Positions 1,374 through 6,542 of a DNA stretch of 19,969 bases are shown in pieces. The first letter of the stretch is position 1. Each line of letters starts with the position of its first letter. The DNA comes from a virus (Duplodnaviria; Heunggongvirae; Uroviricota; Caudoviricetes), in the IMG/VR virus record IMGVR_UViG_2675903289_000008. One strand, 5' to 3'. Under the pieces are notes generated by a model, which saw only the letters and a list, made by a program, of their open reading frames with translations, was not told where the DNA came from and did not search any database. Both the position numbers and the translations under genes were made by a program.

Positions 1374-3037
1374 TGAACAAAGCCAAAGAAAAGTCTCCTT
1401 CACTGATACAAATGACACCTCCCCGCAAAATTGATCTGTCCGGTGAAAAAGCCCTGCTGGGCGTGGATGTGCCGGACAGCCTTGATTTGCCCGGTGATAT
1501 GCCGGTGTTTCTGGATTATCAGGCCCGCTGGTTTGCAGATGAAAGTCAGGTCTGCATCGCGGAGAAATCCCGACGCACCGGGCTTACCTGGGCGGAAGCC
1601 GGGCGTAACGTCATTACCGCCGCAAAGCCTAAGCGTCGTGGTGGCCGTAATGTGTTTTATGTGGGGTCAAAACAGGAGATGGCGCTGGAATATATTTCTG
1701 CCTGCGCGCTGTTCTCCCGTGCCTTTAACCAGCTGGCAGATGCTGATGTGTATGAGCAGACATTCTGGGATCGGGATAAAAAAGAAGAAATTCTGACCTA
1801 CATGATCCGCTTTCCGAACAGTGGATTCAAAATTCAGGCATTGTCTTCCCGTCCGTCAAACCTGCGCGGTCTTCAGGGGGATGTGGTGATTGATGAAGCC
1901 GCGTTCCACGAGTCACTGGATGAGCTTCTCAAGGCGGCAATGGCGCTCACTATGTGGGGCGCACGCGTGCGCATTATTTCCACGCATAACGGCGTCGATA
2001 ATCTGTTTAATCAGTACATTCAGGAAGCCCGCGAGGGGCGCAAGGATTACAGCGTCCACCGCATAACCCTGGATGATGCCATTGCGGACGGGCTGTACCG
2101 TCGTATCTGTTACGTCACCGATCAGGAATGGTCACCGGAAAGCGAGCAGAAATGGCGTGATGATCTCTACAAAAACGCCCCGACCCGTGAGGATGCCGAC
2201 GAGGAATACGGCTGTATCCCGAAAAAATCCGGCGGTGCCTATATTCCTCACGCGCTTATTGAAATGGCGATGATTCGTGACATCCCGATTCTGACGTTTG
2301 AAGCCCCGGACGACTTCATCAGCCGTGCCGCATGGCTGCGTGAATCGGAAGTTTTAACCTGGTGTGAAGAACATTTAAAACCGCTTACAGAGAAATTAAA
2401 TCCCCGTTCCCGCTTCAGCTTCGGGGAAGACTTTGCCCGCACCGGTGACCTGTCCTGCTTTGTGCTGCTGGAAATCACCGAACTCCTGGCAAAGCGCGAG
2501 GTGTTTCGCGTGGAGCTGCGCAACCTGCCGTATGCCCAGCAGGAACAGGTGATGATGTACATCCTGACCCGCGTTCCGGCGCTGGTCGGTGCGGCGTTCG
2601 ACGCCACCGGTAACGGCGGCTATCTGGCAGAGGCCGCACTGCTGGCCTTTGGCCCGGACATCATCGACTGCGTGATGTTGTCGCCGAAGTGGTACGGCGA
2701 GTGGATGCCAAAACTGAAAGCCGAGTTTGAAGATCAGAATATCCTCGTCGCCCGCCATCAGACCACGCTTGATGATTTGCGCCATGTGAAGGTGGTGAAT
2801 GGTATCCCGCAAATCGACAAGGGGCGCACGAAGGACCAGAACGCAACGGCTGCGAACGCCCGCCGCCATGGTGATTTTGCCGTGGCACTCTGTATGGCAA
2901 ACCGGGCGTCATACATGGAGGGTTTCATCCTGGATGAATCAGCCTGTCAGGCGCTGCCGGAGCGGTCGCGGGCAATGGAGGGCGGTTATCGTGATGACGA
3001 TGAGGCATATCATGAATTTGATCGGGGGTGCTGGTAG
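1373..3037 (+). CDS. terminase large subunit (Mu gp28-like)
   Basis: 554-aa ORF; position after small terminase and before portal; acidic ATPase-like stretch (VVIDEAAF) and C-terminal nuclease-like region; coherent codon usage. Confidence 0.85.
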   Translation: MNKAKEKSPSLIQMTPPRKIDLSGEKALLGVDVPDSLDLPGDMPVFLDYQARWFADESQVCIAEKSRRTGLTWAEAGRNVITAAKPKRRGGRNVFYVGSKQEMALEYISACALFSRAFNQLADADVYEQTFWDRDKKEEILTYMIRFPNSGFKIQALSSRPSNLRGLQGDVVIDEAAFHESLDELLKAAMALTMWGARVRIISTHNGVDNLFNQYIQEAREGRKDYSVHRITLDDAIADGLYRRICYVTDQEWSPESEQKWRDDLYKNAPTREDADEEYGCIPKKSGGAYIPHALIEMAMIRDIPILTFEAPDDFISRAAWLRESEVLTWCEEHLKPLTEKLNPRSRFSFGEDFARTGDLSCFVLLEITELLAKREVFRVELRNLPYAQQEQVMMYILTRVPALVGAAFDATGNGGYLAEAALLAFGPDIIDCVMLSPKWYGEWMPKLKAEFEDQNILVARHQTTLDDLRHVKVVNGIPQIDKGRTKDQNATAANARRHGDFAVALCMANRASYMEGFILDESACQALPERSRAMEGGYRDDDEAYHEFDRGCW

Positions 3038-4626
3038 TGGGACGCATAATTGATCTTGACGGAAAACCTTTCTCCTTTGACCCGGAGATGCAAAGTACCG
3101 CGCTGGATATTCCGCAGATTGCCAGCCGTTATGTTGAGCATCCCGCCTCGGGTATCACCCCGAACCGGGCGGCGCAGTGCCTTCGCGGGGCTGAACGTGG
3201 CGATCTGATTGCCCAGTCCGATCTGGCGGCTGACATTGAAGAAAAGGACACCCACCTTTTTGCGGAGCTGGGCAAGCGACGTCTTGCCATTCAGGGGGTG
3301 CCATGGAGCATTGAGCCGCCACCGAACGCCAGCGCGAATGAGAAAAAGGACGCGGAAATGCTCGACGAATATCTGCATTCCGCAGACTGGTTTGATGCCA
3401 TGCTGTTTGACGCCACGGATGCCATCCTGAAGGGCTATTCCTGCATGGAAATTGAGCACGGGATGCTCGGTAAAATGCACATCATCCGCGCCATCCGCTG
3501 GCGTGACAGCGGGCATTTCTGCCTTAACCCGGATGATTTGAGCGAACTGCGGCTGCGTGACGGCAGCCATGCCGGGGTGGCGTTTCAGCCCTTTGGCTGG
3601 ATAGTGCATCAGTCGCGTTCACGCACCGGCTACGGTGGTGCGACGGGGCTTGTCAGAACGCTTATCTGGCCGTTCATTTTCAAAAACTATTCCGTGCGCG
3701 ATCTGGCGGAATTTCTGGAGGTGTACGGCCTGCCAATGAAGGTCGGGAAATACCCGTCCGGGGCAACACCGGAGCAGAAAAGTGCCCTGATGCGGGCGGT
3801 GATGGATATCGGGCGACGTACAGGCGGGATCATCCCGGCCGGGATGTCGCTGGAGTTTCAGGCGGCAGCGAACGGTCAGGCCGATCCGTTTGAAACCATG
3901 ATTTCGTGGGGTGAGCGTTCCATCTCCAAAGCAATACTCGGCGGCACGCTGACCACGGAAGCCGGAGACAAAGGCGCGCGCTCGCTGGGTGAGGTGCATA
4001 ACGAGGTGCGCCGGGAAATCAGGGATTCTGATTTACGCCAGCTGGCTGCAACCCTGAACCGCGATCTGGTGTATCCGCTGTATGCCCTGAACACCGCCCA
4101 CGCCATTGATATCCGTCGCCTGCCGCGTATCTGTTTCCAGACCAAAGAACCGGGGGATATCACCAAAATAGCCAGTGCGGTGATGCAACTCAGTGCGGGG
4201 ATGGATATTCCTGATCCCTGGGTACGGGAGCAGACCGGTATTCCACAGCCCACGCCCGGTGAAGCCATATTCCGTGTCCGTCAGAGCAGTAATGAACCGG
4301 CCATGCCTGACAGGGAAACGCTACCGGAAAAACAGGAAAAGACAGAACAGACGGCGCTTTCAGCCCGACTGCCGGAAGCGAAAAACACGCCGCGTGATGA
4401 ACTGGACGACATGGGGGACGCGGTGCCTGCCCGCCGCTTACAGGAGGCCATCGATCCGGTGCTGGAGCCGGTCATTGATGTCATCAGAACGCGGGGGCTG
4501 GCGGAGGCACTGGCAGACCTGCCTGCCCTTTACCGTGAAATGGATGATTCCCGCCTGATGACGCTGCTCAGTGATGCCATGTTTGCTGCGGAAATGAAGG
4601 GGATGCTGGATGGCTCAGGGGATTGA
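3037..4626 (+). CDS. portal protein (Mu gp29/H-like, DUF935-type)
   Basis: About 530-aa ORF after the terminase. GTG at 3037 sits 9 nt after a GGGGG run and overlaps the terminase stop (TAGTG); the ORF track start at GTG 3028 is the alternative. Confidence 0.8.
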   Translation: MGRIIDLDGKPFSFDPEMQSTALDIPQIASRYVEHPASGITPNRAAQCLRGAERGDLIAQSDLAADIEEKDTHLFAELGKRRLAIQGVPWSIEPPPNASANEKKDAEMLDEYLHSADWFDAMLFDATDAILKGYSCMEIEHGMLGKMHIIRAIRWRDSGHFCLNPDDLSELRLRDGSHAGVAFQPFGWIVHQSRSRTGYGGATGLVRTLIWPFIFKNYSVRDLAEFLEVYGLPMKVGKYPSGATPEQKSALMRAVMDIGRRTGGIIPAGMSLEFQAAANGQADPFETMISWGERSISKAILGGTLTTEAGDKGARSLGEVHNEVRREIRDSDLRQLAATLNRDLVYPLYALNTAHAIDIRRLPRICFQTKEPGDITKIASAVMQLSAGMDIPDPWVREQTGIPQPTPGEAIFRVRQSSNEPAMPDRETLPEKQEKTEQTALSARLPEAKNTPRDELDDMGDAVPARRLQEAIDPVLEPVIDVIRTRGLAEALADLPALYREMDDSRLMTLLSDAMFAAEMKGMLDGSGD

Positions 4627-5941
4627 TTTAGGTTATGCCGCCACGCTTCCCTCAAAAGAGACGGTGGCATACTTCCGCGCCAAAGGGGCGCATATCAGCT
4701 GGAACTGGTTCGAAACAGACGCGGATGTTCATGCCCGCTCATTCACGGCAGCAAAAACGGCACGGCTGGATGTGGTAACCACATTACAGGCCGAAGTGCA
4801 GCGGGCCATTGATGAGGGGATTTCACAGAAAGAATTTATCCGCACACTGACGCCACGCCTGCAAAAGCTGGGATGGTGGGGAAAGCAGATTGTGGTGGAC
4901 AGCGACGGTAACGCGGAAGAAGTGCAGCTGGGCAGTCCCCGTCGTCTGGCGCTGATTTACAACGTGAACACCCGTGTGGCTTACAATGCCGGGCGTTACA
5001 CGCAGATGATGAACAACACGGACACGCATCCGTTCTGGCAGTATGTGGCGGTCATGGACAGCCGTACCCGCCCGTCGCATTCCGCCCTTAACGGTCTGGT
5101 ATTCCGCTATGACGATCCGTTCTGGAAAACACACTACCCACCTAATGGCTGGAACTGCCGCTGCCGTGTGCGGCCATTGTCTCAGGCTCGTCTGGATGCA
5201 ATGGGGTTATCCGTTTCATCCGGTGAGGATCATCTCTCCACCCGCAATGTTGAGGCTGGCGTGGATAAACAGACCGGAGAAGTCAGAGAAATGCCGGTGA
5301 CCACATATTCAGATGGCACCAGAACCATGACACCGGATGTGGGCTGGTCATATAACCCCGGCTCGGCAGCGTTCGGCACAGACCAGGCGCTGATCCGCAA
5401 ACTGATCGAGGTGAAAAGCCCGGCGTTACGGGAAATGGTGGTTCAGGAGATGAACAACAGCCCGGAGCGGCAGCTGGCGTTCCGCATCTGGGCAAAAAAC
5501 ATCATGCAGACCCGGCGAGGTGGTAACGATATCCGCACGCTGGGCTTTATGACTGAAAGCATTGCGCAGGCAGTGGAAAGCCGGACGGGAACGCCACCGG
5601 CCCGCCTGCTGGCGATGAGCGGTAAAAATGTGCTCCATGCAGACAGTGTGAAACATCAGAATGACGGCATCGCCCTGATGCCAGAGGACTTCGGGCGCTT
5701 ACCGGCAATGCTGGCAAAGCCAAAAGCGGTGCTGTGGGACAAACGGCACAAAAATCTGATGTATATCGTGGAAAATAAGGATGGCAGTGTGCAGATTGCC
5801 GTTAATGCACCGTACAGTCTGAAACGTCAGCCCGACAAACTGGATGTGATTGTGAATGCTTACCGGGTTATCAATATGGATAAGCTGAAATCGGATATCC
5901 GGGGCGGAATGCTTGAGGTGCTGGAAGGACAAATTGATTAA
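4610..5941 (+). CDS. MuF-like head morphogenesis protein (Mu gp30/F, SPP1 gp7 family)
   Basis: 443-aa ORF with the MuF-type motif region (DSRTRPSHSALNGLVFRYDDPFW...PPNGWNCRCRVRP); follows the portal as in Mu. Confidence 0.85.
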   Translation: MAQGIDLGYAATLPSKETVAYFRAKGAHISWNWFETDADVHARSFTAAKTARLDVVTTLQAEVQRAIDEGISQKEFIRTLTPRLQKLGWWGKQIVVDSDGNAEEVQLGSPRRLALIYNVNTRVAYNAGRYTQMMNNTDTHPFWQYVAVMDSRTRPSHSALNGLVFRYDDPFWKTHYPPNGWNCRCRVRPLSQARLDAMGLSVSSGEDHLSTRNVEAGVDKQTGEVREMPVTTYSDGTRTMTPDVGWSYNPGSAAFGTDQALIRKLIEVKSPALREMVVQEMNNSPERQLAFRIWAKNIMQTRRGGNDIRTLGFMTESIAQAVESRTGTPPARLLAMSGKNVLHADSVKHQNDGIALMPEDFGRLPAMLAKPKAVLWDKRHKNLMYIVENKDGSVQIAVNAPYSLKRQPDKLDVIVNAYRVINMDKLKSDIRGGMLEVLEGQID

Positions 5942-6026
5942 CGGTCAGTGGCGGGGGTCGAACCCGCATACATGATCCACCCGGAGGCAGGCACCGACTT
6001 TACCAGTTAAGCGTACACTGACCGCC
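5942..6026 (-). other. tRNA-like structured element or tRNA remnant (minus strand); also a 9-bp inverted repeat on the + strand
   Basis: Minus strand reads GTCAGTG-TA-...CTGG...-GCGGG-TTCGACC-CCCGC-CACTGAC: 7-bp acceptor-like pairing, U8A9-like TA, D-loop GG, canonical T-arm. No anticodon stem could be folded and there is no CCA. Confidence 0.3.
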
Positions 6027-6062
6027 TGTTTATTTTATATTCATCCTTTATGCGGAGGCAAT

Positions 6063-6542
6063 ATGTCATCCATTGATGCCGCTGTCGTTGTTGACGTTAC
6101 GCGTCTCCAGCGGGTGTTTGCCCGGCTTCAGTTTGTGGGCGGCGGAAAAGACCTGGCCCGCAGTGTGGCGGAGAGTCTNNNNNNNNNNNNNNNNTCAGAA
6201 ATGGCGTTTGAACAGGAAAAAGAGCCGGACGGCGAACGCTGGCATGACTGGTCAGATCCTTACCGCAAGTGGCGTACCCGTAAGGGATACACGCCCGGCA
6301 AAATCCTGACACTGAACGGCGATCTGGCCCGCCGCCTGACCACGGATTATGGCGATACCTGGGCGCTGATTGGATCAAATGAACCTTATGCGGCCATTCA
6401 TCAGTGGGGTGGCCTGCCTGGTATGCCACCGGGACCGGCGGCCATTGGCGCACGTCCGTATATGGGCTTTGATCAGGTGGCAGAACAGGAGATCATGGAC
6501 GAAATCAGAAAACGCTTTAAAAAGGCCACAGAAACGCCGTAA
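6063..6542 (+). CDS. virion morphogenesis protein (Mu G-like)
   Basis: 159-aa ORF with GGAGG Shine-Dalgarno ahead of ATG 6063; sits between MuF and protease/scaffold as in Mu; reads in frame across the 16-nt N-run 6179-6194. Confidence 0.7.
   Translation: MSSIDAAVVVDVTRLQRVFARLQFVGGGKDLARSVAESXXXXXXSEMAFEQEKEPDGERWHDWSDPYRKWRTRKGYTPGKILTLNGDLARRLTTDYGDTWALIGSNEPYAAIHQWGGLPGMPPGPAAIGARPYMGFDQVAEQEIMDEIRKRFKKATETP

Follow-up and report, generated by a model that had tools for sequence, protein, structure and literature searches.

A tRNA-shaped, probably non-decoding RNA gene in the F-G head-gene junction of Mu-like prophages

What occupies the gap between the head genes F and G of a Mu-like prophage: a transfer RNA (tRNA), the remains of one, or an RNA of another kind? 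The question is raised by a stretch of viral DNA of 19,969 nucleotides (nt) (IMG/VR record IMGVR_UViG_2675903289_000008; Caudoviricetes), here called the window, which corresponds to the late (lysis, head and tail) region of such a prophage. A first-pass annotation made from the sequence alone had noticed a tRNA-like cloverleaf on the minus strand of a 121-nt F-G gap. The gap does have this length, with the stop codon of F at 5939-5941 and the start of G at 6063. Three readings were offered for the cloverleaf: a tRNA-derived relic, a structured RNA, or a plus-strand hairpin followed by a T-rich tract that acts as a terminator. Compensatory changes and invariant tertiary nucleotides among relatives bear out the second of these. 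The element is very probably a functional, transcribed, non-decoding tRNA-shaped RNA gene.

Folding energy alone is uninformative, being unremarkable on both strands (z = -1.1 and -0.7), and support for the element therefore comes from comparison with relatives. A search with Infernal against Rfam, one of the checks proposed at the outset, places it above the gathering score of the tRNA family RF00005 (31.0 versus 29 bits; E=7e-5 for a 271-nt region and 0.005 for the whole window), with an alignment that passes over the anticodon arm as a 24-nt unaligned local insert. At permissive E-values the same search yields nothing but tRNA: STnc480, snoRNAs and DUF3800-III fall far under threshold, and the element has no match to the transfer-messenger RNA (tmRNA) families, Y RNA or C4. 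ARAGORN reports no tRNA and no tmRNA in the window. The RefSeq pipeline, in turn, annotates an 80-88-nt ‘tRNA-OTHER’ in the same place and on the same strand in identical and related Escherichia coli prophages. Prophages of E. coli JE86-ST05, JE86-ST02 and S1-CAM-01-A match the queried stretch of the window at 100% identity, about 150 further E. coli chromosomes do so at 95-99%, and the region is present in 230 of 5426 complete E. coli genomes. Copies in O157:H7 are left unannotated in RefSeq; in the one that was aligned, the sole difference is a purine exchange in the T loop, G57A.

The core of the RNA, from the first to the last base of its closing stem, comprises about 83 nt of the minus strand (5942..6024), and is supported by the Rfam tRNA match (6022..5943), the RefSeq feature and a match to a covariance model of the family, R1 (6026..5939, 93.3 bits). 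The closing stem is acceptor-like and pairs CGGTCAGTG (6016..6024) with CACTGACCG (5942..5950). Its inner part, GTCAGTG (6022..6016) with CACTGAC (5950..5944), is the pairing of seven base pairs (bp) that was first described, but the stem is really 9 bp long. The remaining tRNA-like signatures that had been listed, namely a TA at positions 8-9, a GG in the D loop and the T arm GCGGG-TTCGACC-CCCGC, are all read in the minus strand. The TA (6015..6014) opens a U8-A9-C linker leading into the D arm, GCTT / AACTGGTA / AAGT (5997..6015 including the linker), whose loop AACTGGTA (AACUGGUA as RNA) spans 6008..6001 and contains the GG. The T arm, GCGGG-UUCGACC-CCCGC (5967..5951), is preceded by a variable-loop equivalent, GUAU, the two together covering 5951..5971. 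No anticodon stem had seemed foldable; an anticodon loop is indeed lacking, but a stem does exist in this position (5972..5994). It consists of a 3-bp proximal stem GUG/CAU (GTG 5994..5992 with CAT 5974..5972) and a distal hairpin CUGCC-UCCG-GGUGG (5990..5977), capped by a tetraloop and without a 7-nt loop. The reported absence of CCA is correct, as the three bases after the closing stem are TTA, the complement of the F stop codon.

Alignment of the F-G spacer across Mu-like prophages, also suggested at first, reveals an element that is kept and that carries compensatory changes. The spacers of E. coli prophage variants are only about 75% identical to one another, yet among them the acceptor stem passes from GUCAGUG/CACUGAC to GUCGGUG/CACCGAC to GCCGGUG/CACCGGC, each change being compensated, and the T stem from GCGGG/CCCGC to GUGGG/CCCAC. 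The D and T loops are invariant, and the middle is unalignable. The modelled structure comprises 20 pairs in the 9-bp closing stem, the D stem, the 3-bp proximal stem of the middle arm and the T stem. In a hand-curated alignment of 16 distinct sequences (A3), 98.4% of positions are paired and 10 of the 20 pairs have changed on both sides; controls with slid 3′ partners give 0-2 both-side changes, and none of 500 shuffles reaches the observed values.

How far the element extends was examined with R1, the covariance model built from the curated alignment, and with a second model, R2, built from the R1 matches. Both were run on 80 species-representative Mu-like loci that had been fetched only for encoding an F relative of 34-75% identity. 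Of the 27 matches to R1, 26 immediately follow the F stop codon on the opposite strand; R2 gives 31 matches, including more divergent forms. The genera matched by R1 are Citrobacter, Edwardsiella, Erwinia, Apirhabdus, Gilliamella, five genera of Pasteurellaceae, Alishewanella, Shewanella, Catenovulum, Marinomonas, Marinobacter, Marinobacterium, Oleiphilus, Azonexus, Sideroxydans and a metagenome-assembled genome (MAG) of Desulfovibrio. The host spread thus runs from Enterobacterales through Betaproteobacteria to Desulfovibrio.

In an alignment of 40 distinct sequences (A4), 98.6% of cells pair, as opposed to 40-49% in slid controls, and 18 of the 20 pairs have changed on both sides; the fitting of this alignment to the model flatters the pair counts, and the hand-curated A3 agrees with fewer sequences. 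Compensatory changes occur in all four helices. Every one of the nine closing-stem pairs changes on both sides, including pair 8 (G-C, A-U, G-U, U-A, C-G) and pair 9 (A-U, C-G, G-C, U-A), and because these two covary the discriminator position is taken to be paired. A C-G pair of the T stem is replaced by U-A in 16 of 40 members, and the proximal stem covaries between GUG/CAU and GCA/UGU. The nucleotides that hold a tRNA in its tertiary fold are constant or nearly so. All 40 members have U8, G18, A21, U48, G52, G53, U54, U55, C56, R57, C61 and C62; G19 and A58 are found in 38, A14 in 37, and A15 and U20 in 37-38. Selection has therefore acted on the tRNA L-shape and not merely on hairpins. The RNA should fold into this shape, given that all elbow and core contacts are kept (U8-A14, A15-U48, G18/G19 with U55/C56, U54-A58, G53-C61).

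Watson-Crick covariation alone does not discriminate between the strands. In the alignment of 40 sequences, however, G.U pairs occupy 60 cells, and one G.U, where the middle arm begins, is nearly fixed; since these turn into C.A mismatches in the reverse complement, the latter pairs in only 91.2% of cells compared with 98.6%. The invariant loops match D-loop and T-loop motifs on the minus strand only. A putative promoter lies on the same side. A -10-like hexamer (TAAAAT, TATACT, TATAGT, TATAAT or TATATT) is found 5-13 nt upstream of the stem in nearly all 40 members, its position being kept despite differing surrounding sequence. In the window, a promoter scan places the -10 box TAAAAT at 6032..6037 on the minus strand, 7 nt upstream of the stem, and the -35 box TTGCCT at 6056..6061, with an 18-nt spacer between them; the -35 box overlaps the Shine-Dalgarno sequence GGAGG of G on the other strand (6054-6058). 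Relatives have TTGCCT-17-TAAAAT, and those from Pasteurellaceae, Desulfovibrio and Betaproteobacteria have TTGACT or TTGATT at 16-18 nt. The G.U pairs, the loop motifs and the side of the promoter together assign the element to the minus strand.

From the placement of the -10 box, transcription is predicted to start with the first base of the stem or slightly ahead of it, without a 5′ leader, and in the window the primary transcript likely begins 1-3 nt upstream of the core, near 6025-6027. In Gilliamella and Bisgaardia, where the F stop codon is 20-25 nt away, a typical intrinsic terminator stands directly 3′ of the RNA. An antisense open reading frame (ORF) of 77 amino acids downstream of the RNA (5932..5699) was considered as a product of this strand and set aside, as relatives have no conserved ORF there.

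Can an RNA of this build take part in decoding? In the arm at the anticodon position, the covarying 3-bp proximal stem leads to a distal stem, often by way of an internal loop that is asymmetric and A-rich. Among 38 distinct arms the terminal loop has 4 nt in 23 (UUCG, UCCG, GAAA, GUAA, CUUG and others), 3 nt in six and 7 nt in one; one subgroup carries loops of 6-14 nt. No CCA is encoded, and the 3′ flank is not conserved among members. ARAGORN gives nothing or contradictory calls on relatives (tRNA-???, Pyl, Phe), and the lone RefSeq call of ‘tRNA-Tyr’, in a satellite copy described below, takes its GUA from within a perfect 16-nt palindrome, CAGCCUGUACAGGCUG. Thus the element resembles a tRNA in exceeding the curated RF00005 threshold and in its conserved tertiary nucleotides, and has neither a 7-bp acceptor with unpaired discriminator and CCA nor a 5-bp anticodon stem with a 7-nt loop. 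Nor do the members share a constant set of identity elements for any synthetase. Two candidates were rejected: the histidine identity pair G-1:C73 is present in the window but in only 21 of 38 members, and the alanine identity pair G3:U70 is absent, 3:70 being C-G in the window. With a capped hairpin in place of the anticodon loop, no CCA, and both the discriminator and the next base position paired, the RNA, judged by its sequence, cannot decode. The first-pass annotation was right that this is not a normal tRNA gene: ARAGORN is silent, and both the 7-nt loop and the CCA are missing.

The distribution of the element combines deep conservation with repeated loss. Mu-like phages exist in two states, one in which the element is present and the F-G gap measures 82-146 nt, and one in which it is absent and F and G abut or overlap by 1-4 nt. 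The latter is found in phage Mu, whose overlapping F and G leave no place for the element, a Yersinia Muvirus, Pseudomonas JD024, BcepMu, Kluyvera prophages and others. One thought was that the C-terminal part of F might be a toxin with the RNA as its immunity partner; this was ruled out, as RNA-less Mu-type phages have F proteins 58-59% identical over their full length. A context-free scan of metagenome contigs for a pattern of D arm and T loop returned 27 loci. Relatives of F and/or G flank 21 of them in the same arrangement, four lie about 290 nt downstream of a satellite-type Mor gene, and two remain unplaced. An earlier scan of genome contigs, with a pattern that was too strict, found no match, and a census by minimum-free-energy folding of every F-G gap was dropped as too noisy, since it misses known members.

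The Mor context leads to an 8-kb island located at tRNA-Ile next to mug in E. coli JNEC-KY179. The island codes for an integrase, a helix-turn-helix (HTH) protein, ash, an icd-like gene, a RepA-type helicase, SSB, PerC and Mor, and ends in two tandem tRNA-like genes (5996-6195 of locus L003, equal to 1507-1706 of L041; also in L141, L144, L148 and L150). One of the tandem copies is the RefSeq ‘tRNA-Tyr’, and the other is a ‘tRNA-OTHER’ with an interrupted terminal stem of 5+5 bp. Repeats of the GTGAAA type are seen upstream of the tandem copies. The island, whose Mor protein is 44% identical to prophage Mor, is present in about a dozen E. coli genomes and gives the impression of a Mu-like phage satellite in which Mor and the RNA have both been acquired by capture.

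Neighbouring intervals of the head module also vary in content. In Pseudomonas Mu-like phages the adjacent gap, between G and the protease gene, is annotated as an anti-CRISPR locus. In Pseudomonas phage JD024 (L124, 3346-4011), F and G abut and the G-to-protease gap carries AcrF2 and an aca-type HTH gene. In the isolated Haemophilus parasuis phage SuMu (L126, 5308-5456), the F-G interval measures 570 nt and contains a small additional ORF and a divergent cloverleaf; the cloverleaf after F is preceded by TTGATT, 17 nt and TATATT. The intervals of SuMu and JD024 suggest that accessory functions are inserted preferentially into the spacers of the Mu-like head module. In Bisgaardia hudsonensis (L066) there are two copies of the element, at 2277-2363 (+) and 3835-3908 (-), and after the upstream one comes the remnant of an F 3′ end in inverted orientation, which suggests a rearrangement or two adjacent Mu-like prophages.

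What the RNA does can be proposed from these properties. As an explanation of the whole, we favour, with modest confidence, a tRNA mimic that does not decode and is transcribed on its own. The RNA would start 1-3 nt before the 9-bp stem, under a sigma-70-type promoter (-35 at 6061..6056, -10 at 6037..6032), and the stem would enclose the D arm, a hairpin of variable sequence and the T arm. Given its orientation opposite to the late operon and its ordinary promoter, the RNA would be made in the lysogen and in early infection, and late transcription across its promoter would turn it down. It would then act in trans as a tRNA look-alike that binds, and perhaps titrates, a factor that reads the acceptor/T helix and the elbow. 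Mimicry is the most economical mechanism because the parts of a tRNA that are read by proteins and RNase P are kept, while those that are decoded, charged or cut are absent. Both ends that tRNA-directed enzymes attack are sealed, for which reason the RNA would not be consumed as a substrate. That it serves specifically as a decoy is a tentative proposal, conceivable but rather less than probable. The function may plausibly be accessory, serving for example to manipulate the host, to counter its defences or for exclusion, given that Mu dispenses with the RNA, that a satellite carries it and that the adjacent Pseudomonas gap is an anti-CRISPR locus. Places to look would be immunity systems that target tRNA and the way in which SsrA, through its tRNA function, affects Mu repression.

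Several points weigh against a trans-acting mimic. No gene for a partner protein co-occurs with the element within the flanks examined. An antisense position that is conserved in different phyla would sooner suggest a fixed part of the head module than an accessory gene that is gained and lost. As the RNA and the late mRNA are perfect complements, there is room for an antisense role. Mu, too, does well without the RNA. Because the -35 box overlaps the ribosome-binding site of G, its conservation may be owed partly to G. No terminator is called after the RNA in the E. coli copies, where the 3′ end abuts the F stop codon and there is no room for one. The transcript, its ends and its abundance are predictions, and the pair counts of the larger alignment carry the bias noted above.

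Gene F, encoding the MuF minor head protein (4610-5941, plus strand; Pfam Phage_Mu_F and MuF_C), is the upstream neighbour, and gene G, encoding a virion morphogenesis protein of the Phage_tail_S family (6063-6542, plus strand; Pfam), is the downstream neighbour; both are in the ORF list and opposite in strand to the RNA. A run of 17 masked N lies within G (6179-6195), and its ORF stays open in frame. F and G belong to the same late operon with G downstream, so that expression of G requires read-through, and the Shine-Dalgarno sequence and start codon of G fall outside the stretch covered by the RNA.

The main rival to the mimic, though an improbable one, is a cis-antisense regulator that would act through complementarity to the late F-G mRNA or by read-through into F, its tRNA-like fold merely stabilising it. 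Such an RNA might silence leaky late expression in lysogens or direct RNase III processing at the F-G junction. Orientation and position are kept in every Mu-like copy, the promoter overlaps the ribosome-binding site of G, and transcription may enter F in the E. coli copies, which lack a terminator of their own. However, selection on tertiary nucleotides and helices is not needed for antisense action, and tight folding slows pairing. Where there is room, a terminator directly follows the RNA, so that read-through into F is not required, and the two copies retained in the satellite island have no F-G target beside them. The signals that start translation of G are, moreover, left uncovered. The tertiary selection, the terminators and the satellite copies argue against antisense regulation as the whole story.

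It is unlikely that the element is instead a natural ‘tRNA scaffold’ displaying a payload, in which the conserved tRNA body would provide no more than stability and processing and the hypervariable hairpin would do the work, for example as a decoy for a hairpin-binding protein such as a CRISPR repeat-binding nuclease, or as a specificity determinant. Among E. coli prophages the scaffold is 88-96% identical and the last 300 nt of F 87-90%, whereas the arm is 43-68% identical, and has therefore been replaced rather than having drifted; loops of 6-14 nt in some arms would also suit a payload. Nevertheless, most arms of the family have just 3-5 bp with UNCG or GNRA caps, which are typical inert caps, and the arm of Pasteurellaceae is conserved rather than hypervariable. 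When the RNA of Z887 was compared with the rest of its complete 38.7-kb prophage (inserted in mhpD), the best complementarity was 13 nt, no better than chance, as 12 of 200 shuffles reached at least 13 nt. The arm of one satellite copy, CAGCCUGUACAGGCUG, may resemble the repeat hairpin of the E. coli type I-F CRISPR, CUGCCGUACAGGCAG, a likeness that does not extend to the other arms. A CRISPR-repeat mimic was rejected as a general reading, most arms being generic tetraloop hairpins.

Still less expected is that the RNA assists F, G or the portal as a cofactor when heads are assembled or DNA is packaged, in the manner of the packaging RNA (pRNA) of phi29. The strict and ancient synteny with the F-G head module across phyla would suit such a role, as would the copies in a satellite that presumably exploits Mu-like helpers. 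Yet the RNA opposes the late operon, so that its promoter would be overrun exactly at the time of assembly, and Mu, Muvirus, Casadabanvirus and BcepMu, whose F and G are homologous, assemble heads in the absence of the RNA. Mu-type virions are not known to contain RNA.

An element of the plus strand, acting in the late mRNA between F and G as a terminator, processing site or stabiliser, is very improbable. The Watson-Crick helices are equally present in the complement, and in the window a T-rich tract follows the 9-bp stem, which is what had suggested a terminator in the first place. That suggestion is not borne out: a terminator scan calls none at 5942-6045, the T-rich tract is the reverse complement of the -10 box TAAAAT and is not T-rich in relatives with TATACT, TATAGT or TATAAT, and G downstream needs read-through. 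A processing site or stabiliser on this strand would face the same lower pairing caused by the G.U cells and the invariant proximal-stem G.U, and the position of the D- and T-loop motifs and the conserved promoter on the other strand. The least probable alternative is a tRNA relic, as first suggested, in the sense of a decaying pseudogene or a trace of integration, or else a genuine tRNA that decodes despite an unusual anticodon loop or an intron. Its tRNA-like appearance, its Rfam score and its RefSeq labels (‘tRNA-OTHER’ and once ‘tRNA-Tyr’) speak for this alternative. Against a relic, the element keeps its position and strand in distant phages with F proteins 34-75% identical, along with 18 of 20 covarying pairs across all four helices, near-invariant tertiary nucleotides and a conserved promoter of its own; Mu-like phages, moreover, transpose and are not known to integrate at tRNA genes. 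Against a decoding tRNA, 37 of 38 arms lack a 7-nt loop, the arms vary in length and sequence and receive inconsistent anticodon calls (the ‘Tyr’ resting on the palindrome), CCA is absent and the discriminator position is paired.

The same slot is also occupied in more distant phages. Several Mu-like loci missed by the models keep a gap of about 100-150 nt with a TATAAT-like box, a long closing stem and three hairpins. In one distant group, some members of which were found by R2, the T loop is kept (GGUUCGAGUCC) and the first hairpin is capped by a tetraloop. Another group has promoter-preceded cloverleaves with non-tRNA loops, all on the minus strand (L065 3829-3936, L071 3811-3920, L063 3497-3728, L097 at the 3′ end of a 3640-4267 gap, L083 3778-3884 and L087 3778-3905). 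Here hairpins 1 and 3 carry mutually complementary loops (CGGC/GCCG in most loci, UGCG/CGCA in L083), which may form a kissing-loop substitute for the elbow, a lead drawn from few sequences and one compensatory case. If kissing loops replace the D-loop/T-loop contact in distant phages, selection would be on the L-shape itself. The broadest reading, which we regard as speculative and doubtful in its entirety, would join these strands: an ancient, undescribed family of L-shaped RNAs of the transposable-phage head module, present in Proteobacteria and beyond, sealed at both ends and expressed from its own promoter against the late operon. Its members would be non-consumable decoys or regulators of a tRNA-recognising factor, either an immune nuclease or the trans-translation or tRNA-processing machinery, captured in tandem by satellites and given kissing-loop elbows in distant phages.

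Other features were observed in passing. About 10-12 tandem CAGTCGT heptamers (minus strand) separate the start of the next gene from the F-G cloverleaf in L063 (about 3600-3725) and L064 (about 3950-4070). A Porticoccaceae MAG (L108, 5320-5402, minus strand) has a match to the Rfam family sRNA-Xcc1 (RF02221; 61 bits, gathering score 53) about 1.5 kb downstream of F in a Mu-like head module; this small RNA, too, is stem-closed, multi-hairpin and antisense to head genes. Large viral IMG/VR contigs (L039 and L040 of 74 and 43 kb; L037 and L038 of 71 and 131 kb) carry apparently genuine tRNAs with the T arm of the element, GTGGGTTCGACCCCCA. In one of these the anticodon loop reads UUUAUAA, the variable arm is long and CCA is encoded. 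Another, resembling tRNA-Leu(CAA), has the acceptor stem GTCGGTG/CACCGAC that is also found in some E. coli variants of the element. These tRNAs may hint at the origin of the scaffold.

How does the element compare with known systems? Full-text literature searches returned no description of it (papers on Pas-sRNA, AcrIIIA1 and HnrS proved irrelevant), and Rfam has no family for it other than tRNA. In databases it appears as ‘tRNA-OTHER’, as a spurious ‘tRNA-Tyr’ or not at all. Its loci should be counted neither as tRNA genes nor as evidence of integration at tRNA sites, and the covariance model can serve to mark a class of satellites and one large Mu-like prophage lineage. Being intergenic, with no overlap with F or G, the element is easily mutated.

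Host tRNAs are a main battlefield between phages and bacterial immunity. Systems that target tRNA include PrrC, PARIS and retron Eco7, and the tRNA-Lys/Tyr of phage T5 act against PARIS and retron Eco7. Septu is reported to cleave tRNA-Tyr (PMC13096335). Like canonical tRNAs, including those of phages, the element is phage-encoded and has acceptor, D and T arms and all elbow and core tertiary nucleotides. In contrast to them, it lacks an anticodon loop and CCA, and has a 9-bp stem, a paired discriminator, an extra C after A9 and a promoter immediately before the stem with no 5′ leader, and it cannot replace a cleaved host tRNA in translation.

The tRNA-like domain of tmRNA (SsrA) is also an anticodon-less tRNA mimic. 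The tRNA function of SsrA reportedly influences repression of the Mu prophage, which gives tRNA mimicry a precedent in Mu biology. Unlike tmRNA, the element lacks G3:U70, CCA, an mRNA-like domain and pseudoknots, and has a full D stem and a capped equivalent of the anticodon arm. The sole match to a tmRNA model is a weak artefact that spans the two tandem satellite copies, and identity with tmRNA was rejected. The Y RNA YrlA likewise is a non-coding, non-decoding RNA that copies the D-loop/T-loop elbow of tRNA; its tRNA-like module is part of an RNA bound with Ro/Rsr, and YrlA also occurs in phages. YrlA has its ends on the anticodon-stem side, where they form the Ro-binding helix, and its acceptor-like stem is closed, whereas the element has normal tRNA topology. 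Besides the missing Rfam match, there is no rsr or rtcB nearby, the neighbours being F and G.

The C4 RNA of P1/P7 and the CI RNA of satellite P4 are small, processed, stem-closed immunity RNAs. The element shares with them its small size, paired ends and internal hairpins and its occurrence in temperate phages and satellites, including an island that is P4-like in its ash and icd genes. C4 and CI use single-stranded loops complementary to targets in their own operon, whereas the loops of the element are the D and T loops and a tetraloop. It has no Rfam match to C4 and no significant target in the complete Z887 prophage. Further tRNA look-alikes outside translation are the vtRNAs/TMERs of murine gammaherpesvirus 68 (MHV68) and mascRNA. 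The tRNA-Other of Bacillus cereus is a non-translational pseudo-tRNA with cellular effects (PMC3399842). The element resembles these pseudo-tRNAs and look-alikes in being tRNA-shaped, in being labelled ‘tRNA-Other’ by annotation tools and in not serving translation. They are unrelated to it in sequence and context, and they keep an anticodon-type loop and/or gain CCA after RNase P/Z processing, in contrast to its sealed ends and fixed place in the phage head-gene module.

The element is therefore a tRNA-like non-coding RNA in general kind, while it departs from each specific family in the features that define it. Mimicry of tRNA recurs as a strategy, as in tmRNA, Y RNAs and viral tRNA-like structures. 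The element would represent a widespread phage RNA of that kind, with strong comparative support and a role open to direct test in Sp18-type E. coli prophages and in SuMu of H. parasuis.

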